From positions 1,736,001-1,800,000 of the forward strand of contig OZ234494.1 in the NCBI GenBank assembly GCA_965153455.1: 64,000 bases of DNA, read 5' to 3'. Under the pieces are notes generated by a model. It ran no database searches. It was not told where the DNA came from and worked only from the letters and a program-made list of their open reading frames with translations. Shown piece after piece: positions 17,804-60,667 of this stretch (positions are counted from its first letter, which is position 1; every line of letters starts with the position of its first letter). The translations under genes and the position numbers were made by a program. This DNA comes from Sphagnum compactum (taxonomy: Eukaryota).

Positions 17804-18100
17804 CATCCACAAAGCTCTCTCCCTTTCTCTACATTCTCGTCTGGGCGTCTTTAGACGCGCCAGGAGGAGCTCCTGGTGATCCGTGCAGCGGCCGCCCACG
17901 AGCGCGCGGGTGCTAAGGTTCGCTCCTATACCATCTCTCTCTCGTCGTCATATCTCCCATCCACAAAGCTCCCTCCATTTCTATACACTCTCGTCTTGGC
18001 GTCTTTGGACACGCCAGGAGGAGCTCCTGGTGATCCGTGCAGCGGACGCCCGCGCGCTGGTGCTAAGGTTCGTCCCTATCCTATCTCTCTCTCTCTCTCC
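17804..18100 (+). repeat. GC-rich tandem duplication (154-bp period) in the probable 5' leader/promoter of the AP2-like gene
   Basis: catccacaaagctc...gccaggaggagctcctggtgatccgtgcagcgg...tgctaaggttcg at 17804 and 17958. Confidence 0.9.
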
Positions 18101-18961
18101 GGGGTGGCGGTATGAAGTGGAGCGCGCGCCTTGTTACTTTTACGTTCTCGTGGTGGTGGTCGTCTGAAGTGGAGCGCGCCTTGTTACGCTTTTGTCAAGT
18201 TTCGTGTCATGTCGCCAAGCGCGTGCGGGCGTGTTAACTTTAGTCTTTAGTGTTTCGTAGAATGTAGGGAGCTGCTTTCCAGATTAATAAGAATTTTCGT
18301 GACGTTAATTCTATTTGCAACGAGAAGATTGATGACCTTTTTTTTTCTTTTTCTTCTAGCTCTTATAAATGTCTTGATATTCTCCAGTCTTGCATTGTCA
18401 TAGCATGGCGCGTCTGTACACTAGTTTTTGAATCTATCCGTATCTAACTCCACTTTCTCCAAAATTCAATTACTAGCTAGCTTGAACGGAGATGATGTTG
18501 GGCGCATGAGTAAGTGAGTCGATCGTATGTAGTTTGTTTGAGATGCGGATGTGCGCATGGAGGGTGGTAAACGGCTACTTTCTGAAGTCACCAGCTTGTT
18601 GATCGCTGGAGAATTTCTTTTTTCCCCAAAGCTGTCAAGGTTCTGTTTCCAACAAAACTGTGAGGAGGTGTAGACAGTCGCGCGCACAGTTGTGCTAACC
18701 TCCCGGATCGCTCATCTCTGTTTATGGCTTCACCTGCAGGTGGAAGCTGAATCCGCTTGTCTCGGAAGTCAGGCCATCTCGGTATCAGGTTGCAGAGGAA
18801 GGTAACCTCCAAATAGCTGTTAGCTGTCTGTCTTTCCTACATTACAGAAGCTTGCATGTGCATCCTTCGGCACAAAGCTCTCTCTTGTATAACTACAAAC
18901 AACAAAACAAAAGAATCCATGTAGTTATGTGACTTGATGCTGGAAAACACATGCAGGTAAG

Positions 18962-21900
18962 ATGAAGATGTCCAAGAAGATGTCTCGAGACCAACGGATA
19001 GCAACAAGCGCACTGATGGAGCTATCTGCACGTCCAACGGTACTCGCGATCAAGTCTGGACCACAACGGAGAGCACCAAAAGCACAAGCGCTAGCTGCCG
19101 CACCAAACACAGTAGCCCCAGCAGCGGCTGCTAGTGGCAATGTTGTGAAGACGAAGTACAGGCATATCCATTTTTATAAAGACTCTGGCAAGTTTGGGAC
19201 TTGGTCCAGGTAAGAATCTACTAGTCAAGGCTACTAGTGTTTTCCAGATCTACATGCAAGACCATTAAATGTTCAGCTGTGGTGATCAGTGTGCTGATCA
19301 GAGTCTCTGACGACTTCCTTCCTGGGTACCACCAGCTAGATGTATAGCAACTGGTATGTAGATCACTAGTCTTGCTTGAATAGAAACACAAAACGTTAGG
19401 ATTAAAATCTCCAACTTGATCAAATGCATAAATATACAACATGCAAGTCATTATTCATATAAATACTGGTCATTCATCAACTGGGTATTACAGCATCTGG
19501 GTTCAAAATTTGACATGGTTTATATATATCTGATGATCTATTCAAAAAGTGAGGCTTAATTTTGTGTTTGTTTTGCAGGCCATACAGAGGATGCCCACAG
19601 AAGCGGGTCTATATAGGTATATACGTTCATGAGTCACCATGTGACCATCTGTTGACCATCTGTTATGTTACAGTAGCATGCATATAGAAACTGACCTTTA
19701 ATTAGTAATTGTGGTACTCATCAAATGTAGATGACGCCAGTACATCTGGTCAATGGTTTCTGAAACTTGTTCATTTGTTTGTTCACTTGCAGGATCCTTC
19801 AGGAGTATGTATCTCTCCAAAAGGTAATTATTAGTTGTTTATCTCCCCAAACTCCTCATGAATAATAAGCTGGTTTACTGTAGATACTTGAAGAAATATA
19901 TAGAACTTAGTGATGTTGCATTGCAAGCACTTACAACTTGTGCTTCCCTAGCTTATACACCTTGTCTGGTTGCTCAAGTATAAGCCTGTATTATGAGGTG
20001 AATCAGGGCCCAAGATAGGGCTTACCTGAAGTACAAGTTGGACACCAAGATACAGCTTCACTTCAAAGAAAGTGACTATGCCTTGGACGAAGAACTGGTA
20101 AGCTTCAAGTACCATGTAAAAGAATTGGAGTGATGTTAGCATGGTCATCATGCATCTTGATTGATCAGCCATACGGAAGCTGTGCATTGATATGAGCCTT
20201 GAACAGTCCCTTCTAAATGATTCTAAATGATTCCTGTGTCACCTGCATGCATGCATGCAGAGAAATACAATGAACGACCTTGATTTTGTCAAGCTTCTGA
20301 GAGCTGAAAGCCGAGACTACTACAAGCTGGCAGCTGAACCATCAAAATGTAGGTAGCTTTTCCCAATTTTGGACGTACAGATCAATAGCATAAATTGTCA
20401 TTCTTTTACACCTTCGAACTAATAACAGAACCTGACCAGAACTTCAACCAAATTTCTCTGTGCTTGAGGCCTCCCTTTGAGCTAAAACTTGACTAGTAAC
20501 CTCTTGCGTCCATCTTAATACACATTGACATTTGCAGATTATGAAGATGGTGAATGATTTTAGCTGCATGAGCTGCAGTGACTAATCTCTACATGCATCA
20601 TTAATCTCTGGTCTCTAATTTGCCCGCAGGCCTGCAATCATACTACAAGCCTCCAAGTGAAGATGAGGAGACTCAAGTGCTTGTGGGATCATTCTCCAAA
20701 TCGACTCCTGAGACCAAGTACAGATCTAGTCCTATTTTCCCTTGATATGAGCTGATGACTGCTATAGACATTTATATCAATGCCTTTTCTGAACAGCAGA
20801 ACTTGATGATATGCAGCAAATGCTCAGTTAGAATGTACTGCTGTGGTTTTATATGCCATCTTGGTGTCCTCTTCTTTTGAGAGGAAAAGAAAAAGCTTGG
20901 ACACTACATGAAGAAACTTGCAGAATGATCCAATGAGTGACATAGGTGTAATTAAGAACTAGTTTAAACTCACTATAATGCATGTAGTAAAGCTGCAGCT
21001 ACAAGTGATCAATTGTCTTGATTTGTAATTATGGGCTTGTAGATGCTTAATTGGATGTTTAGTAGAAGTCATTTGATCTGCACTATCATGGATATCTGAT
21101 GTTGTGCATTCTAGAGCATCTTCTTCTACCGCTATTGAGGAACCTGAAAAAGTCTCACGGCCAAAGAGGCGGGCGAAGACACTCTGCTCTGAAGTGATTC
21201 GCAAAGTTTGCAGCAAGAAGCCCAGGAGCTCTGAAGTAATTCACAAAGTTTGCAGCAAGAAGCCCATGGGGGCTAAGAAAGTCTGCTCCCCAGTACGTAG
21301 CAAAGTTTGCAGCAAGAAGCCACTGGGGGCTAAGACACGCTGCTCCAAAGTACTTAGGAAAGTATGCAACAAGCAGCTACAGCGACCGAGGTAATTTATT
21401 ACCCAGCTCCAGGACATGATCCTAGACTAATTTTTTTGTTAATAGACGTTCAATCCATTCCTCATGGAATCCAGAGTGCCAAATTGTGTCAAAAATTTGG
21501 TCTAAGAATTGGTCTTATTAACTTCCTGTTGGTGGGTGGCAACTGCTGCAACTCAAATGCAGCGAGCATGAAATCCGCTTGGCAATTGAGGCTTCATTAA
21601 AGTCTATGGAGACTGCACCACCGAGCTTGGCACCAAACGCAGTGGCAGACATGTTCCTGGACCATGTCTCCATAGTGCGCAAACAGAGAAGCCCCGGAAA
21701 ATCAGCTTTCTGGAAGACAATCAATGCTCGCAGTACTACAAGAGCTGGAGCAGAAGGGAGTCATGCTGTAGCAACTGCAGTAGCAACTGAAATTCTATCT
21801 GCAATACTATCTGCAATTCCAATTTCAGAATGCGAAAGGTAATAATTAAGCTATAATTCCTCATGAAATTACTACTGTTGTTTGTTGATTCAAATATGAT

Positions 21901-22163
21901 CTACTAGCTAGCGACAGCCATTATTATACGATTGCTAGCAATTTTGTGAATGAATTTTACAAGCTCAAATTTGCTTGGACCTTTTGTTTTTTCTTTGCAG
22001 ATCCAATGTCATGCAGTTGGACAACTCCTTGGATATGGAGAAAGACCAGCAGCAGCAGCTGGAGGTGAACATGAGTATTCCCACTACTCCATTGAAGTCA
22101 AGATTCGCGATGATGGACATTCCTTTCAAAAAGAGAACAGCATTCAGACAGAGGTTTGAGTAA
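18962..22163 (+). CDS. Divergent single-repeat AP2-domain protein (~432-436 aa) with basic Cys repeats, a UIM-like motif and C-terminal IPFKKR
   Basis: GT-AG exons join in frame: 18962-19209, 19579-19616, 19793-19823, 20007-20097, 20261-20348, (optional 20538-20549), 20630-20717, 21115-21390, 21563-21838, 22001-22163. The spliced domain reads KTKYRHIHFYKDSGKFGTWSR|PYRGCPQKRVYIG|SFRSMYLSKR|AQDRAYLKYKLDTKIQLHFKESDYALDEEL|RNTMNDLDFVKLLRAES, which aligns with YRG...VYLG.F....AARAYD.A...INF...DY...EFV..LRR. Exons after 20348 are less certain. Confidence 0.8.
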
Positions 22164-25049
22164 GCTGTTTGTGTTAAAAGAAGCTTCTGCTTGGCTTTAC
22201 AATTGCTGTGTGTTTCAGAACCTACTACTACTGCAGCAGCAGCTGCAGGATGCCTAATGTCATATATCTACCAGTACCCACCAAGTCCTTACTTACAAGT
22301 GTGGTAGCCTGGTAGGTCACAAATAACTACAGAGATACACCAAGCCAAAGACCAAGCTAGACCAATCACCCAGTTGGAACTAATGTAGATTTTGGACTAG
22401 TTGCTTTGGACCTTTTTTTTGAAATTCCTAGTGTGAACTATTGAAAAGACAATAAGAACTAGGCAACATTGGTGTGGATTAATTGTTTTGCACCAAATTT
22501 ACAATTATTAGTGTGAACCAATGTTGGTTGGTTTCAAGATTTGAACCAATTCCTTATAATTATTAATGTGGACTAGTGTGGTCTAAATTCAAGTTTTGGA
22601 CCAATTCCTTCTAATTATTGTTGTGGACTAAGGTAGAAATGTTTTCCACTATTTAATAGTTGACGTCCAAATGGTTGGTAAGAACTCATTGGTGGCCTCT
22701 TTGTCATTCAATAACCCATTCATGACCGAACATTTGATTGAAGTTTTACTTTATCAATCTTTTTGGTTTGTCAGTTTGGAATGATGTTCTATTATGCAAT
22801 TAAGGAGTTTGGAATATGTTGGTGTTTTGACCCCATCATGAGTAGTTGTGTTTGGTGGTGGGGTGCAAAGGTGCACATTTTAATGCATACAATTGACCAT
22901 AAACAAGGGTGGGGAAATGTGGTTGTATTTTGACCACTTAGTTCATGGGTGTGGTTTGGTACATTTTTTACATTAAAGGAGTCCGGTTTAGCAAAAGCAA
23001 TGCTTGGAGTAAAGGTGGTTTGGGCCCACTTTTGCAAAAATTCAAATGGAACAACAAAGGTAGCATTTGGTTATGGGTATCATATGGAACACTTTAAGGA
23101 CAAAATTGTTCATCTTTACAAAGGAATTGTTTGATTTAGAGGTGGTTTGGGCCCATTTTTTCAAAACTACAAGAACACAAGCTAAGGTGAATGTTGGTGA
23201 AGTGGTGTTTTGGGCCAATCTAAAGAAAAATTTAAGAACAAAAAAAGGGTAATTGTTTGGTTAATGGGGTGGGTTTGTCACACTAAAAGGTATGCAATTG
23301 AACATTAATAAACAAAACCCTATCAATCTTATAATGCACAAACATCACCAAAGGCAATATGATCTTTGGATCCTACAAACATGCACATTTATTAGCAAGT
23401 CAAATGAGAAACTAAGCAACATATTTCCCTATCCTTTTGCATTTCCTGCCAAAAATTATAACAAGACAACAATTTATATAGGCAAAGTTGAAATCATCTA
23501 AGCAAGGATACTTTTTCATTTTAATTCTCAACTCTTTTTTACCAAGTATGTCCTCCCTACCAAGTACCATTGAAGATGAACTACAATCTTTCTTATGGTT
23601 CCTTGTACAATAATGTTGAAAATTGTAGTAAGAAGCCAAAATTTAAAAGTCAAGGTACAGTATGCAAAGGAAAAAAACCCAACCTGGAAAATAAACAAAG
23701 AAGTATATTTTTAAAAATGAATGGAAAAGTGTAGGAAAATATTAACACTAAGACTAGATGTAAAGATATAAATCATAAATCATATTCACATAGAGGTTCA
23801 AGAAATACTTGTATTATCATTGGTTTGCACAATTTGTATCAAGAAGTTTTAGAATTCACAATAGTGCAAAGAGGACTAGAATACAACATGCTTTAATTCA
23901 CCACAAAGTTTGAGGTTCACACCCACAACATGCACATCAACCTTAGATGTTATTCTAGTTTGGAAAAACTTTGATGACTTTTACACAATCATTTCATCTA
24001 TTGAACCATTGGACACATATGCATTAGAAACATATATAAACTTAGTTCACTTTTTTAATTTTTCCTTTGTGTTGAAGAAAGACAAAGGCATACCACTAGT
24101 TGGGCCAAGCTGCAAACCCCCAACTCCTTGGAAATTAGGGTTGGGAGGAGTGAGGAACTAATGCAATTGAATGTGCCTTGCAACCAATGAAGCAACATGT
24201 TAAATCTGGCTACATTAGACAAGGAGAATGTGCCCTCTACTTCTAAAACATAGCCAAAACAAAAAGGTTACAAAGGTTAATTGGGTTCATATATATGGTT
24301 ATGGTAAGGGGCAAATGGACAATTAAAGCATTGGAAGAGATAGTGAATGATATTGAAAGTAGAAAGGTGAAATCACATTATGGTGGCCCCCTTTTGGGCA
24401 CTTTCATGGGTATTCTTATATATACACCTCCCCAAATGTGATTCATTTAATTTTTAGTTCATTTTTTTGTGTTTAAGAATTATAATTTGAACTTTCACAA
24501 AGTTAATTTTATTTAATATGGAAATAAATGATAAATATAATAATTTAAATTAAGGTAACCATGGGTAAATTTATATATACACAATATAACAAACCTGGGT
24601 TCCATTTCAAACTATACTATAATGTTAATTTCATTATAATTCAAATAAGCATTTGAAAAAAATCTTAAAATCCTCCCTTCTCAAAATATTTGTCACCTTA
24701 CATTTGAAAGTGATTTCTTCTCAAAATGTCAATTTACCACATACTTATGCTTAAGGCTCCCAAAAAATTTCATATATGACATGAAAATTATCACCAAAAA
24801 AAAGTTTCACAAATATTCCCATCCACCATAATATAAAGAAAAATAAATACATTTCTATTTGTTTACTTGGGTTATGTCCTAACATAATATGATTAAACAT
24901 TATGAAACTCATTAATTTTGACATGGTTAGGTTCATAAATGCACTACCCAAAAAAACATTACAACATGATTACACAAAGAGGGCCACTGTAATGTGCTTT
25001 CATTTTGAACTTGTTTCTTAGGGGGGCAAGTAGGTTATGGAACATACCT

Positions 25050-30974: not shown

Positions 30975-32639
30975 TTATTGGGGCGACTGTGAAAGCTCTT
31001 TCCTCAGTTTGCTGTTAAAGGGTTGACAAGCATCCACACTGAGGTCAACTGCCGCTGCAAGAGCCATAAAAACAGCTGCATCTTTGACACATCTGACATG
31101 CCGCATAGCTAGCTGCACCAAGGGTTTACTACTTTTCCTTTCTCCTCGGATTGCACAACTCATAACAAATCCACCACCACCACTACCAACAACTGGAAAC
31201 CCCACATTGTTGTTGTTGAAGGAAGAAGAGGAGGATGAGGACAAGGATGTGGAGGAGGAGGAGAAATCATCACTGCTCATGGTACTATCCTTTTTCCCCA
31301 GCCTGTCATCTGGAGAAAGAGCAGCTGGAGAAACAATTTCAGGTTTGAAGCGGGTGGTGTCAATGGAAAACTCGCCTCCCTTTCGAGCGCACACAGTGGT
31401 CTCTGACATCAAGATACCAGATCCTACTACTACACCTGCGGCACCAACACCATCACCACCTTCTGCTATCAGCTGGAATCGGCAGCTGAAGCTTTTACCG
31501 CCAGGTTCTCTCCAAGCTTCCAGACGACCCCATGGTCTCCAGCATGACTCCATGGCAGTTGTTGCCTCAGGTTGCAAGATGAGCCATGCACCAGGATTTG
31601 AGCGGCTCACATAGTCTGTGCCTGCCGAAGGCACAAAAGGTGTCACCATTGATGCAGCTGCCACAGGAGAACCCGAAAGATCATGTATCATCACAAGCCA
31701 GCCTTTCCTTTCCTTTCTCCCTTTCTCCTTCTCTCGTCCGACTGTTGAGGTACCTACCCATCCACTGCCAGCTGCAGCAGCAGAAGATGATGAAGAAGAA
31801 GAAGCACTTTGCCCTCCTACCCTGCAAAGTTCTCACAAAGAAACCACAACAACAAAAGCATCAGAGAGGGATCACACAAGCAAGCTTCACTAGGGTTTCA
31901 ACAAGTTCTTGCAGTGAGAACTTTTCTTGTTCCCTGCCAAAGACCCCAAAGCCAGGAAGAAGAAAAGATGTACTTACCATGATCTTGAGCTTCTGTCTCG
32001 GCTGAACTTGCAGCTGAAGATTGGCTGCTTGGTGTTGCCACGCACTTGTACAATCTGGGGACCCAATGCAGTCTCCCCATCGAATTGAAAGAGGTATCGA
32101 GGGTCAGGCTCCATTCTCACACTTAAGTGAAGTTCGGCTCCGGGTCTTCCTCCGTCTGCCTTTCCCTTCCCTATACATGTCCAGCCATTGTGCAACAGAA
32201 GGGGCTTCCCTTGCTCCAGCACCCACTCTAACCCTAATGCCAAGCGGAAGACGCCCAGCTTCTTTCTCCCTGTAAACACCACCACCTCAAGGCAAGGCAT
32301 GCTTCTCCTCCTGCTGCTGCTCATCATACACGACGGGAGCAGCAGCAGCTTCTCCAGCGCCGCTTCGTCCAAGTAGATGCTCGCGGCCGCCACCGCCGTG
32401 TTGTTGCTGCTCATGTCCGGGTCGACTACCGCCGTCGGAGGAGGAGCAAACAATGAAATGGGTACCTTCTGTGGTGGGAAATTGGGAAGCCGTATCTCGC
32501 AGAAGCAAGGCGAAGACGCCGCATGCAGCACCCCTCCGCCGTTCCTCCTGGACGACGCCGCTTCTTTACTCGCCACCATAGGCACCATTCGCAGACACAA
32601 TCCGTCAACCGCAAGCCTCACGAATGCACGCGGTTCCAT
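30975..32639 (-). CDS. DUF1005-family plant protein (~502 aa, 2 exons)
   Basis: Exons 32639-31978 and 31821-30975 (phase-2 GT-AG intron). Motifs: MEPRAFVRL, PCFCEIRL, EPDPRYLFQFDGE, QPIFSCKFS, ERKGWLVMIHDLSGSPVAAASMVTPFVPS, SNPGAWLIL, WRPWGRLEAWRE, FMALAAAVDLSVDACQPF. Confidence 0.95.
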
Positions 32640-45843: not shown

Positions 45844-48800
45844 TTAAATATTCAGAGGTTCTGATTCAGAATCTACTCCCTTCTCTGCAACCCAGGCCTC
45901 AACTGATCCTGCAAATGAGTAAAATGGTAGTTAGACATGTGCCTTTCAGCAATCCAGACCGTTGTGCAGATGGGGAAATCCTGTTCTGCAACACTATCAT
46001 CCTGACGTCATTTACATTGTCAAGAGGTTCTCCTTAGTTGCATTGAGAGGACTAATGTGTGAATAGTTGTTGCTGAACTCACATTGGAAAAAAATGTTCG
46101 TAATCTTCCAGCTAGTAATGTCCTATTAGTTCTTGGAAACTTACCTTGCCTCCAGCTCTAGAAGCAGAGACATCAGAAGAGAAATTGCAACTGGAGAGCC
46201 TCAAGAAACAATGTACTACTACAACACAAAAAGCAGAAGCAAGTATGAAGAAGATGCAGGATACTACTTTGAGGGTGCATTAAAACTTACTATTTCTGTG
46301 GATCTCTGCAATCACCATGAGGCGTCGCTGGAGAAATGCCGCAAGTAGTAGAAATAGTGCACACATCCCAAACATACCTGTGATAGGGAATGCACTCACC
46401 TGCCAAGCACAATAAGAAGTTAAAAAAGACAAGACCATACAACAGAATGAAAACGTTCTTCTCAAACAAGCATATCTGCAAGACTGCAGAGATAACTCAA
46501 CAAACAAGCAACACAACTAATGATGTCAGAATGCCATGGCAACTATGACAAGACTTTGCTGGCAGTTCCTTCTTACTGCCTTTTTTTCACTACCCTCTGC
46601 CCCAGATGAAGTTGTTGATTCTTCCCTCCATTCATCCTGTTTATATACAAACTCTAAGCACATGGCAAGTATCTCCTGACAGATCAACTGAATACTTCGC
46701 TAACTGACCAAAGATTCACCCTATTCTGCAGCCAAAAAAAGATAAATTGGAGACAATTAACATCTACAAATAGGTGTATTGGGGAGCTAAAGTGGCAGTC
46801 TGCATGGCAAGCTTAAAGGTTTGATTTCACTCACATTATACAAAACAATGCAGACAAAAATGTTGAGTGGAATACGAAAGAAGTTCATGATTGTGCTCCT
46901 GGATTCTTCAGGGAGGTACTGTGATCGCATCTTCATGATAGATGGCCAAAATAAGCCAACACAGGTCTCAAAAAGACAGAAACCAAGCAAGTTGAGGCGG
47001 CCACCTGGTGAGATACCTCCACCTTCAGCAACTGCTGGCTCCACAAGGAACTGCAACACCAAATAGTCAAGACAGCATTTTCAGGAGCAGTACACTTGAA
47101 TCAATGTCTGACGACCAGCATACTGAATTTCTGTCACAAACTGGGAGTAAGCAGAAGACTCAGCCATGATGCTGGCTAGCTGAACTAAACACTAAAGAGA
47201 TGGAGATTACAAAGGAGATCAAGAAGAAAGGGGAACACAAAACCAAAAAGTAACCAGACAAAGACAGTGGAAACAAAGAACATATTCTTTTGAGGACAAC
47301 TGGATGGAGGAAAATTAGTAGCACTGTACCAATTGCTGCTACAGTACCAAGTCTAGTTTCATGCTTATCATGCAGTGTACAGGACCATCATTTCATCCAT
47401 CTAGCATCATACATGCAATGACTACTCTCACATTCATCTCTGACTAGTGCTGCCATTTGGTGACCTCTGTGATTCATGGATGCCTGGCCACTGTTTCCAC
47501 AAAAACCAGCAGATAGAGATGATAATCGTATCCCAAAAACTTGAGAGTAGGAATGCAGAAGTCCAGCCAGTAAGATATCTGCAGAGAGGTCTGAAAATGA
47601 AGGTATTTGAAGAAGCAGAAACCAGGCCACATAGACACCCAAGCTAGCAGGGAATTCTGAACTTACAGTAATCAGCACTGGAAGACACAAAGAACCAGCT
47701 GCAACAAGGAAAACTAGCTGCATGTAGCTTTCCACCTTCAAATCTGTACGTGCCAGAAGGCGTGATGCCAGAGAGCTGCCCAGCATTGAGGCAAGCATAA
47801 AGGTAGCAAAGATGAACCCATGAGGAATGGCCTGTTTATTTGGACTGAGTGCAGGTGTCCAAAGAAACACAAATGTGTACATTGAGCCCTCAAAAAGAGA
47901 CTGGATTGCACCAAGAAGTGCAATTTTCTCATCTGTGCACCCACCAAGCAGCCAACCAACATATGATGAAGGAGGCATCAATTCCAGGCAGTAGAAAAAG
48001 AGTTTAAACAAGCAAGGAGTCACATCCTCAATTAGCATATAAGTGGGAAATGTTCACCTATTTTGAGCAACTTTTGGTTTCCCTTGAACTAGAACTAGAA
48101 AGAGTATTCAGAGTAGTCAGAAAACTATTCTCTCCCCTGCAGACATAGATCCATGAAATAAACATCAAGAAGATCCTACCATTCCTAGAGCACTCTCCAT
48201 CCACAGCCTCATTATACATTGAAAAAAACCAAAGATGCTTAAATAAACAACATCCTGTAACAGTAGTCCAAGCCAGTAGGAATCACAAAACAAAGCAGCC
48301 TTACCAGAGGTAATGGCTAAAGCAGCTTGTTGAAATTGGGCCACAATGGTTTTGCTCTCTGAAGGATCCCCATAGTTTTCTGGCCATGTGTAAATGATGA
48401 TGCCCATGCCTACTGCTAGGAGACATGAAGCTGCATCAAAAGGTGCAACAGGACCAAGGCTGAAACTGCTGACCAGTGTGTTGGCTACAAGCCCCGCCAA
48501 AATAGCAACCAGCCCATTTCCCAGAAAGATCGCCTTTGAGAATGTCAAAGATAACCATTGTGCTTCGAATCCTCTCTGTCAGCACATGTAGAAGAGATTG
48601 ATTATGAGAGTTACTCTTACAATAGCTAAATACAGAAAAATGATTGCACAAATCCCAGTGTGTGTAAAAGACCTGGGACTTAAAAACAAGAAGAATTAAT
48701 CCATTTCATAGTGTAATGACCACCAAATTCTCTGTTATTCATTAATGCTGGCATAATATGTTCCCTGTACCTTGAAGTGCTCTGCAACAAGCCAAGACTC

Positions 48801-57898: not shown

Positions 57899-60667
57899 CT
57901 ACAGCTGTTGATCAAGGAATGCATCATCCTCAGATTTTTTTGGCCCCCATGTCTTTACTCCCAGCATATCACTCACTCCTCCTGTCCACATTTTCCCAAA
58001 CCAGTTATTCAGCAGCGCTCCTCCTGCCCAAGTCGGAAGCCATCCTTCTGAGTTCTCAGTGTGTGCTGTATCACCACTGTCTGTCAATGTCTTCTCCTCA
58101 TCTGTTCTCAGACTTTCCTTCCAGCACTCCAACATGTATGCAATAACAGCCTCTTCTCCTTGCTGAACAACTTCCATGGGAGGAATTGTCAATGGATTCT
58201 CCTCAAGTTTCAACCTTCTCAAGTTTGTCAGCCTTCCGATGGAGATGGGAAGCTCATGGATCTGATTGAAACTGAGATCCAGATCCAAAAGAGAAACAAG
58301 GTCCCCAATGCTATCTGGGATGGTGGTCAAATCATTGAAGTTGCTGCTTACATCAAGCATCTCAAGGTTCAAGAGATTGCCTACGGCTGCTGGCAAGCTC
58401 CGGAGCTTGTTGAAGTGAATGTCCAGAACTTTTAAGGACCGAAGCTCACCAATTGATGAGGGCAACCCTGTAATCTTGTTCAGGTGCAGGTACAACTTCT
58501 GGAGATTGACCAGTTGAAATCCAAAGTCTGAGGGCCAAACCTCCAGCTGGTTAAAATTTGCTATCAGCTCCACCAAGTTGCTGCAAATACCCCAAACCTC
58601 ATAAGAACACTCTCCAGGGTAACAACTGCACCTCAGCAAAATGGATCAGCATTGCTTTTGTTGTTTTCTTCAAGGCAAAGTTGTTCACACAGCCACTGTG
58701 AATTACCCACTCCAGTATAAGTAGCAAAGTGAGGCCAAGCTACCACTAATCTTGGGCAGTATGACTTCATGATCATATCATGACCACTCTTCCATGAAAC
58801 ATCAACCAGAGAGGGTCTTTGGCTCAACACTTTCAAAATCACATGCAGCACCGTAGTCAATGATGAAGCTGCAAAATCTCAAAAGTCTGGACAAGCTATG
58901 GCTGAATTAACTAAATAGCAACCATATGCTAGGCCACAAAAATGTATTCAGGAGTTGATCTGGAGCAAACTTGGCTAAACAACTCAAAGCCAGCTCCATG
59001 CCTTGCCCTGGAGGAGTTAGTACCTGCAGCGTCCAAGACTCGCAGGCAAGGTCTTCAGCACATTTCCTGATATGTTGAGAGATTTGAGATTTGAAAGCAA
59101 CCCGATGGAGTCTGGTAATGCCTTAAGTTGGTTATGTTGTACATCAAGCGTCTCCAAGCTCACAAGACCAGCTATGGAGTCAGGAATAATCTGTCACAAG
59201 GTAGCAAAATGGAAAGGATGACTTTGTCAACTAGGCATAAAAATGAGGCGGAATCAAAGGTGACAGAACTCAACAACTGTAACTGAAAATCAATGCAGCT
59301 TCACTTATTACAATTCTACAACATGACCATGTAAGTACATATCATAATGCAGACCAAGCAAATCAACACTCTCTGCTTACTAGGTCCAGTTGAGCCTGAC
59401 CTCTAAACAATTGTTTGCCAGGTTCAAGTGGACAATTGATGAGATTTTCCCAAACAACTCTGGCAGGTGCACCAGATACCGTCCCTTGAGGTCAAGGCTG
59501 TCCAATTGCTGTTCTTGAGCTTCTTGCAATTTTGCTGAAACATCCAAGTCAACCTCATCTGTGGGTTCGACAGTAGCTGCTGATGATGAATCTGGCATGC
59601 CTTCAAGAGCCAATTCTGATTGCTTCACATCATCCTCATACAACTGATGGAGATCATCCAACTCAATCAAAGACAGGTAGGGCACCTTTGCATTCTCTGC
59701 TGCTTCCCTCAGCTCCTTCTCCTTTTCCCCCTGAATAGGTAGTATAACACGTGTAACAGCCACTCAGCCAACTACCACACTCTTGGGACTTGACAGGTAG
59801 ACTAAGATGAATGCAATCTACTGGAAAGTTGCACTCTTAATTCCAAACTGAACACCCTTATTGAGGCTTGTGAGTCACAAAGGGACAGTAGGAGAACAAC
59901 AACAACACAGCATCCCAACACAAGCAAATCTTTCGCAATCCCCCCAGCCCCCTTCATTCATTCATTCAGTTCCCAACATCATTAACATCCAGAGCCTCCT
60001 CCTATGCTTGTCAGTTGCAAGAGCATGAAGACGATCTTCATGAAGCAGCATCAGTTAGGGTTTGTAGTGCATCATCCATTTGTAATCCACAACATGATAT
60101 CACATGGCAATTAGGTTCATTTCCAAAAGACGAAGAAGGAGCAGTAGCAGCACAAATGCCACAGCATGTGGCGAGTTCAAAAAATTCAAACTGTGCTTCA
60201 AATCCACCTCTGCATCACCTTCTTCCATCCTTCGTTCCCCTTCCTTAATGGTTTGCAATTCTCTTAGCCTGCATCTTCTTTAGGGTTTTCTCGCTTGATT
60301 CCACTAGATTCGCAACATAGTAGAGAATTGGCCGTCAGAAAGGAAGAAAAGCACGAAAGAAAGAAACCCTAGAAAAATGAAAAACACCGCAACCAACCTG
60401 CTGCGTCGTCCGCAATTGCTGCTCAATTTGGCCGCCACCGCCGTTGCCAGCAACGGGCGCGAGGGCGACTTCAGCATCAGCAGTAGCAGCAGAAACTAGA
60501 TTCTCCAACTGTTCTTGCAGACACGCATCGATACGCAGCAACGCGTTTCGAGCTTCGTCCACCTGCACACCGGAGGGACGCGGCCCCAACTCCGCCAACT
60601 CCGCTCGCATGGCCGCCAATTTTTCCAACAGCGACACATTCTCTGCTGCGGCCTCGTCCTCCTCCAT
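57899..60667 (-). CDS. PIRL: Plant intracellular Ras-group-related LRR protein (~482 aa, 4 exons)
   Basis: Exons 60667-60398, 59730-59401, 59190-59024 and 58580-57899 join in frame. N-terminal LGPRP...VDEAR coiled-coil region, then LRRs ([79 protein letters not shown]), C-terminal FLDQQL. Confidence 0.93.

Follow-up and report, generated by a model that had tools for sequence, protein, structure and literature searches.

The AP2-like subfamily comprises two lineages: euAP2, which carries a miR172 site, and ANT, whose repeats 1 and 2 contain insertions of 10 residues and 1 residue, respectively (PMC6361745; this and the other papers cited are drawn on for those parts of their text that were available). 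The genes also differ in the micro-exons that encode repeat 1, of which three types are described, among them a 9-bp exon (V-Y-L-G) and a tandem pair of 26 and 31 bp. This pair occurs together with a 45-bp repeat-2 exon, RSR1 being a named example; it was found only in four angiosperms of the nine species sampled, and a late origin was proposed (PMC7714060). The 9-nt exon has been assigned to ANT/WRI-type genes and the 45-nt exon is present in RAP2-7 (PMC8831610), micro-exons of the AP2 domain have been described in AP2, TOE1 and TOE2 (PMC10808074), and an intron after V-Y-L-G is common to both gene types (PMC8831610; PMC7714060). Searches of Physcomitrella, OneKP bryophytes and Phytozome found, according to the available part of the source, no euAP2/TOE3 homologue outside vascular plants (PMC8136505). 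Here, a 64,000-nt stretch of the genome of the moss Sphagnum compactum (assembly GCA_965153455.1, contig OZ234494.1, positions 1,736,001 to 1,800,000; hereafter the window, whose coordinates are used throughout) is described, which holds a nine-exon gene on the + strand at 18962–22163. Judged by its sequence, this gene is a real, Sphagnum-restricted and strongly derived relative of euAP2 genes, with a putative function. The literature searches made here brought up no comparable gene from any bryophyte.

The part of the window between 18000 and 24500 was read and the gene spliced by coordinates. The frame stays open for 433 codons, and all internal exon boundaries have an AG acceptor or GT donor and join in frame. 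Exon 1 (18962–19209, 248 nt) begins with an ATG at 18962 and encodes a disordered N-terminus followed by the start of an AP2-like domain, namely strand 1 (K-Y-R-H) and the strand-2 region, with a phase 2 donor. Two micro-exons follow. The first, exon 2 (19579–19616, 38 nt), ends in V-Y-I plus one base of a Gly codon (phase 1), while exon 3 (19793–19823, 31 nt) encodes the beginning of the AP2 helix and stops in phase 2, after the second base of the Arg codon that precedes A-Q-D. The remaining AP2 helix (R-A-Q-D-R-A) and a first linker helix are encoded by exon 4 (20007–20097, 91 nt), with a helix confidence of 70–85 in the AlphaFold score pLDDT (predicted local distance difference test), and a second linker helix (D-F-V-K-L-L-R-A-E-S) by exon 5 (20261–20348, 88 nt). 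A preliminary description of this DNA, made from its letters, had placed a domain of this kind at 18962–20348, and its exons of 38, 31 and 91 bp recur here with the same coordinates, GT-AG ends and in-frame splicing. The altered hallmarks that it listed (YRH, VYIG and RAQD) and the linker-like DLDFVKLLR are likewise all present in the spliced product. The gene extends past 20348, to a TAA stop at 22161–22163.

The central 100 residues of the protein appear to descend from repeat 1 of a euAP2-type (non-ANT) gene of the AP2 subfamily and from the linker between its two repeats. Searching 1.84 billion representative proteins by phmmer with P0001, the model of this gene in S. balticum, gave 28 proteins at an expectation value (E) of 1e-3 or lower. 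Seven are short Sphagnum fragments of the same gene (46–99 aa). The other 21 are full proteins from outside Sphagnum, which align to query residues ~67–198 with 29–37% identity and E from 1.7e-5 to 9.5e-4. The euAP2 repeat-1 signature is present in all 21 and AASS[GR]F in 19, the exceptions being P0011 (a truncated entry of 211 aa) and P0029; PF00847 was found in each of the ten that were scanned, at 41–78 bits. Ten of the 21 were looked up by taxonomy and all are from vascular plants (eight angiosperms, Pinus and the fern Anemia). Six of these ten clusters are named TOE3, SMZ, APETALA2, APETALA2-like or AP2L1, and four have generic names only.

Profile comparisons gave the same picture. Aligned by hhalign, a Sphagnum profile and a euAP2 profile matched with a probability of 96.4% and E = 1.2e-9 over 90 columns at 32% identity, pairing Sphagnum residues 101–196 with euAP2 repeat 1 and linker. 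A hidden Markov model (HMM) of repeat 1 plus linker, built from the 21 euAP2 proteins, scored the window product at 36.4 bits over the whole sequence and 40.1 bits for the domain; the maximum among 2000 composition-preserving shuffles was 8.3 bits. The corresponding scores were 24.0 bits for repeat 1 only (shuffle maximum 7.8), 6.8 bits for the linker piece (6.5) and 11.3 bits for euAP2 repeat 2 (9.1). In addition, a language-model search for look-alikes ranked an AP2-annotated cluster first (score 0.92, 176 of 256 features shared), which is treated as a lead only. Given the phmmer and hhalign results and the HMM scores relative to shuffles, homology to repeat 1 and linker of euAP2-type proteins is considered sound. 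The hidden, highly divergent AP2-type domain of the preliminary description is thus supported by phmmer, hhalign and the repeat-1 HMM, and the AP2-subfamily linker that it saw after the domain is borne out by the alignments with euAP2 repeat 1 and linker. The euAP2 affinity it suggested also holds at the detectable level, since the sole relatives outside Sphagnum are euAP2 proteins and not ANT/WRI1, RAV or ERF types. Standard domain scans seem to miss the domain because it is split by micro-exons and strongly diverged.

The exon layout is the second line of evidence, as the gene keeps paired repeat-1 micro-exons of the euAP2 and not the ANT kind. If the four residues inserted in the alignments are allowed for, the 38-nt exon equals 26 + 12 nt, and the 31-nt exon equals its counterpart. 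The assignment of the 26+31-bp type to euAP2 draws on the 45-bp exon that accompanies the pair and is present in RAP2-7, on RSR1 and on the micro-exons of AP2, TOE1 and TOE2, with RAP2-7 and RSR1 taken to be TOE1 and a euAP2 gene, respectively. An 88-bp euAP2 exon in Arabidopsis and the exact Arabidopsis phases, which the preliminary description had cited in proposing a euAP2-like architecture, are presumed here. The proposal itself stands insofar as the 38+31-nt pair fits the 26+31-bp type and not the 9-bp VYL type: both exons end where that type does, as gauged by V-Y-x-G and by the Arg preceding A-x-D, the sizes being those given in the available part of PMC7714060. The two micro-exons also sum to 69 nt, so that a transcript skipping both would remain in frame but lack strand 3 and the beginning of the helix; the pair in euAP2 (26 + 31 = 57) would behave likewise.

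Independent gene models exist in other Sphagnum species. A word-indexed homologue search with the exon-1 translation found only two clusters, both from Sphagnum: P0001 (S. balticum, 476 aa, 99% identity) and P0002 (S. tenellum, 427 aa, 92%). Aligned to the spliced window product, both have identical exon joins across all nine exons. S. balticum has another such protein, P0031 (479 aa), which is 95% identical to P0001 and lies on the same 16.5-Mb contig, with an accession number two apart, which suggests a local duplication that is missing from the window; within the window the gene is single-copy by tblastn. Public records list these Sphagnum proteins as 'unnamed protein product', with no precomputed Pfam domain. 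The preliminary description had raised the possibility of a lineage-specific transcription-factor family. This goes beyond the present findings, which comprise one gene in the window, a pair of copies on a single S. balticum contig and DNA binding that is putative.

Genomic DNA from related sources supports an intact gene. A metagenome scan found three Sphagnum-like loci: L001, L002 (93.7% identity to the window, reaching the start of exon 4) and L003 (91%, ending in intron 1). In L001, none of the six junctions examined differs in its AG or GT dinucleotide, those at both ends of exon 2 included, and alignment to the window places no gap positions in exons and 11 in introns. Contigs of three further sets (X1–X3), considered as RNA, were rejected as such and turned out to be DNA of a 95–99% relative because they cover introns; all nine gene-body indels listed for them are intronic, three further ones lying outside those listed. 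An RNA run under another species label (X5) yielded 13 reads, 12 of them partial matches, with no junction information; their loose ends fall at sites that are not exon boundaries (21623, 22037) and in low-complexity stretches. The frame is intact over nine exons in the window, both S. balticum copies and S. tenellum. Together, these observations confirm what had been noticed in the window and indicate a real, intact nuclear Sphagnum gene. Separately, P0005, a 99-aa protein fragment encoded by a public contig of 373 nt, follows the exon-7 frame at first and a shifted frame through the repeat region. Its source contig therefore has a 1-nt indel, which may reflect a broken gene copy, a different allele or a mistake in assembly.

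Among the Sphagnum species, conservation of the protein is highest in the AP2-like segment. Window residues 63–160, which hold the domain, are identical to P0001 and P0031 at 95 of 98 positions each and to P0002 at 93 of 98, and residues 161–433 at 242/272, 244/272 and 223/269 positions for P0001, P0031 and P0002, respectively. Estimates of selection (Nei-Gojobori) are confined to the 5' exons, as L001 and L002 end at exon 4 and L003 in intron 1. For codons 63–105, comparison with L001 gave three synonymous and three non-synonymous changes and a ratio of non-synonymous to synonymous rates (omega) of 0.23, and comparison with L003 gave four and none over the 20 codons 63–82. Codons 20–82 differ from L003 by seven synonymous changes and one non-synonymous change, and the N-terminal codons 20–62 have an omega of 1.7 relative to L001. 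Small as they are, these counts suggest that the AP2-like part is under purifying selection.

Three euAP2 features, namely repeat 2, the AASSGF/miR172-site region and the canonical AP2 signature, have been lost or degraded past detection. When the repeat-2 HMM was applied to residues 149–235 of the product it scored -1.7 bits, which 1171 of 2000 shuffles equalled or bettered, and no AASSGF-like hexapeptide with one mismatch or fewer occurs in the six frames of 18000–23500, a peptide-level search that did not cover the nucleotide miR172 site. A vestige of repeat 2 may persist in exon 6 (20630–20717, 88 nt), where a Cys anchor is followed by V-x-x-G-x-F at euAP2 spacing. Aligned at the Cys that follows the linker, the moss and euAP2 proteins stay ungapped and in register for 45 residues (window 20346–20717 and 21115–21140), with V-x-x-G-x-F and A...A-I coinciding and with 8/45 identities to each of P0010 and P0013. 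The BLOSUM62 score of this register is 0, compared with a null of -40.9 +/- 11.9 (P = 0.00145, for a register picked after seeing the alignment), and the vestige is kept as a lead only because of this post hoc choice. The 'lost repeat 2' of the preliminary description is therefore roughly right by the HMM score, with the proviso that a weak in-register vestige may remain (P ~0.001).

Predicted structure and charge offer some indication of what the AP2-like segment could do. Modelled on its own with AlphaFold (13-row shallow alignment), the domain has a mean pLDDT of 65.3, two short strands, a bridge of two residues at V-Y and, at ~70–85, three helices. In the WRI1–DNA structure, a V-shaped two-helix linker clamps repeat 1, and the three predicted helices would correspond to the AP2 helix and this linker (PMC9401623, in its available part). 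Mapped by eye on the alignments, the Arg of Y-R and the linker L-R, which contact the DNA backbone in WRI1, are retained in the moss protein, and the position of WRI1 H72 is Tyr, as in euAP2 (PMC9401623). The repeat-1-like segment has 14 Lys+Arg against 2 Asp+Glu, a net charge of +12, compared with 9 against 4 (net +5) in euAP2 repeat 1.

The C-terminal half is of a different character. Exon 7 (21115–21390, 276 nt) encodes a basic stretch (R-P-K-R-R-A-K) and contains coding tandem repeats at 21186–21377, with periods of 42 (1.9 copies) and 57 (2.4 copies), that encode four to five Lys/Cys-rich K-V-C-S-K-K-P units without a family match. Exon 8 (21563–21838, 276 nt) starts with a short acidic-hydrophobic-Ala-x-x-x-Ser helix motif (21563–21615) that is conserved in P0001, P0002 and P0031. 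We take this motif to resemble a ubiquitin-interacting motif (UIM) by the general consensus of such motifs; the Pfam UIM family gave no row for P0001 or P0002 at E <= 10. Exon 9 (22001–22163) is the last coding exon, and its C-terminus is the same in P0001 and P0002.

At the other end of the gene, the conserved start is probably the Met at codon 19 (window 19016) and not 18962, because L003 (4001–4246, compared with window 18962–19209) has, in the 18962 frame, a stop at codon 11, along with a 12-nt deletion near the start, and because the S. tenellum model P0002 begins at a later Met, downstream of the position of this stop. Two upstream exons may precede exon 1. The first (18543–18586, + strand) is an open and spliceable stretch with an ATG at 18543, where the S. 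balticum model P0001 starts; it is possibly coding. The second (18740–18801, + strand) has AG/GT ends, is in frame with the 18543 start and could be 5' untranslated region or an N-terminal extension. In neither of the two is coding conserved. Downstream of the gene, an AT-rich stretch (22400–24500) contains several near-repeats, seen by eye, of a motif of ~60–100 nt containing GGTGGTTTGGGCCCA, which may be a dispersed or tandem repeat element. Neighbouring genes have no evident link to the AP2-like gene. All on the - strand, they encode a DUF1005 protein (30975–32639, two open reading frame pieces, E = 8e-56 and 2.5e-80), an MFS_5 transporter (47388–48548, E = 1e-39 and 7e-30) and a leucine-rich-repeat protein (57899–58639).

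Taken as a whole, the account that is moderately favoured here is that of a euAP2-type-derived gene for a putative nuclear nucleic-acid-binding protein with a remodelled basic surface. The protein would be nuclear and would still bind nucleic acid through this much more basic surface, which may be braced by the two linker helices and may have a specificity other than that of canonical AP2 proteins; the Lys/Cys repeats and the ubiquitin-interaction-like helix of the C-terminal half could add further functions. We infer a nucleic-acid-binding regulator because the backbone contacts are kept, three base-reading positions are changed, the net charge is higher and a basic stretch is present. Several results weigh against this account. 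Even at E <= 10, Pfam returned no family for P0001 and no PF00847 match for P0002 (the gathering score of PF00847 is 33.3 bits). Neither P0001 (phmmer) nor a Sphagnum-only profile (hmmsearch) matched any AP2 structure in the PDB at E <= 10, in a set that includes WRI1 (7wq5), TEM1, ERF096 and ERF1, which a genuine euAP2 protein did match. The full-length AlphaFold model (24-row shallow alignment) has a mean pLDDT of 46.5 and no strands, with helices at 138–154, 164–176 and 179–197, and the domain model has a pLDDT below 50 in the strand-2 region (its residues 17–32) and no confident three-stranded sheet. With either model, Foldseek returned no PDB match at E <= 0.001 and no AP2 structure among the weak matches. 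The preliminary description had named a PF00847 search and structure prediction as checks in which the lack of a match would speak against it, and no match was obtained in either. Moreover, of the four residues with which repeat 1 of WRI1 reads bases, three (E79, W83 and Q98; PMC9401623, in its available part) are replaced by Gly, Arg and Arg in the moss protein, as mapped by eye on the alignments. Substitution rates relative to L001 are similar in exons (13/321) and introns (27/726), the selection counts are tiny, and the euAP2 affinity is a similarity ranking and not a phylogeny.

Part of this evidence would suit an AP2-derived segment that no longer binds DNA, whose helix and linker scaffold would act in protein interaction or as a structural module of an adaptor specific to Sphagnum, the sheet having decayed to a basic disordered loop. 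AlphaFold is confident only for the three helices, neither Pfam nor fold searches match, and repeat 2, the source of half of the DNA contacts in WRI1 (PMC9401623, available part), is gone along with the three altered base-reading positions. Such an adaptor is nevertheless considered unlikely, given that the strand region is near-invariant among Sphagnum sequences, with mostly synonymous changes, that it gained rather than lost basic charge, and that the backbone-contact Arg residues are retained. Far less probable still is a decaying duplicate or untranscribed prediction without function. The uninformative RNA run, the eroded motifs without a PF00847 match, the shifted frame of P0005 and the early stop in L003 could be read in this way, and the Sphagnum species are so close that conservation is a weak argument. 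Against decay, however, stand the frame maintained over nine exons in four copies from three species, the kept splice sites, the restriction of indels to introns and the synonymous excess in codons 20–105 (7:1 relative to L003), and the S. tenellum model starts at a Met downstream of the stop seen in L003. A different question concerns ancestry. Descent from an AP2-subfamily ancestor before the euAP2/ANT split, or from the ANT side, would make the euAP2 likeness a set of retained ancestral states, such as the absence of a long repeat-1 insertion and old intron positions. For example, the four extra residues lie in the same strand 2–strand 3 loop as the 10 of ANT (PMC6361745, available part), a few residues match WRI1 and not euAP2 (e.g. 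L-K-Y in the helix), both gene types have the intron after V-Y-L-G, and the euAP2 kinship is one of similarity ranking. This origin is rather improbable in view of the 21 significant matches outside Sphagnum, all of them euAP2, the failure to detect WRI1 at E <= 10, the positions that discriminate between the two (nine agree with euAP2 and four with WRI1, counted by eye on alignments) and a micro-exon pair of the 26+31 and not the 9-bp type (PMC7714060, available part). Horizontal transfer from a vascular plant was set aside as unsupported, with identity of only ~32% and a Sphagnum-specific C-terminal half.

A bolder version of the favoured account is that Sphagnum holds the only known bryophyte descendant of euAP2 with paired repeat-1 micro-exons, which has shed repeat 2 and the miR172 site and rebuilt its DNA-reading surface in a more basic form, and which would act as a lineage-specific regulator with a new specificity. 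This is kept as a tentative possibility, with the balance somewhat against it, because a similarity ranking is no tree and common features could be ancestral. If it were true, the euAP2/ANT split and the paired micro-exons would be older than the divergence of bryophytes and vascular plants, and the origin of the pair, thought to be late and of the angiosperm era (PMC7714060, in its available part), would move back to early land plants. The Sphagnum locus would be a concrete place to test the age of the euAP2 lineage and of the 26+31 exon pair. It also provides a worked example of a transcription-factor domain, split in micro-exons and strongly diverged, that standard domain scans overlooked.

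How, then, does the moss gene compare with described AP2 systems? To Soloist and the SMOS1-type intron-containing ERFs, compared by description, it is alike in having a single AP2-type domain and introns; neither type is among the 28 phmmer matches. With the ANT lineage (ANT/AIL/PLT/BBM, WRI1 and moss APB) it shares repeat 1 and a helical linker, the intron after V-Y-x-G and the helix residues L-K-Y. However, it has neither the 10-residue insertion/euANT1 motif nor the 9-nt V-Y-L micro-exon (PMC6361745 and PMC8831610, as far as their available parts go), and WRI1 is not matched by its sequence. Its strand 2–strand 3 loop is in neither state, with four extra residues relative to euAP2 and 10 in ANT.

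The likeness to euAP2 (APETALA2, TOE1–3, SMZ/SNZ and the AP2-like proteins of ferns and conifers) extends over the ~90 columns of repeat 1 and linker. The common core consists of Y-R, F-Y, G, W, C, K-x-V-Y-x-G-x-F, R-A-x-D-R-A, D-Y and F-V-x-x-L-R-x-x-S, and the two micro-exons of the tandem pair finish in V-Y-(L/I)-G and at the Arg that precedes A-(Y/Q)-D, respectively (PMC7714060, available part). The differences are equally clear. The moss gene has one recognisable repeat, the linker being present and a second repeat undetectable by HMM, and it lacks the AASSGF/miR172-site motif, the K-K-S-R-R-G-P-R-S-R-S-S lead-in and the M-L-D-L-N N-terminus. It has one additional residue after the helix besides the four in the loop, falls under the Pfam threshold and has another C-terminal half, and its host is a moss, whereas no euAP2 homologue outside vascular plants is reported in the available part of PMC8136505. 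Because the two-repeat, miR172-motif and Pfam tests failed, the gene is not filed as a euAP2 member, and by its sequence features it fits the definition of neither euAP2 nor ANT. Its closest detectable kin and its exon layout, in contrast, are of the euAP2 type.

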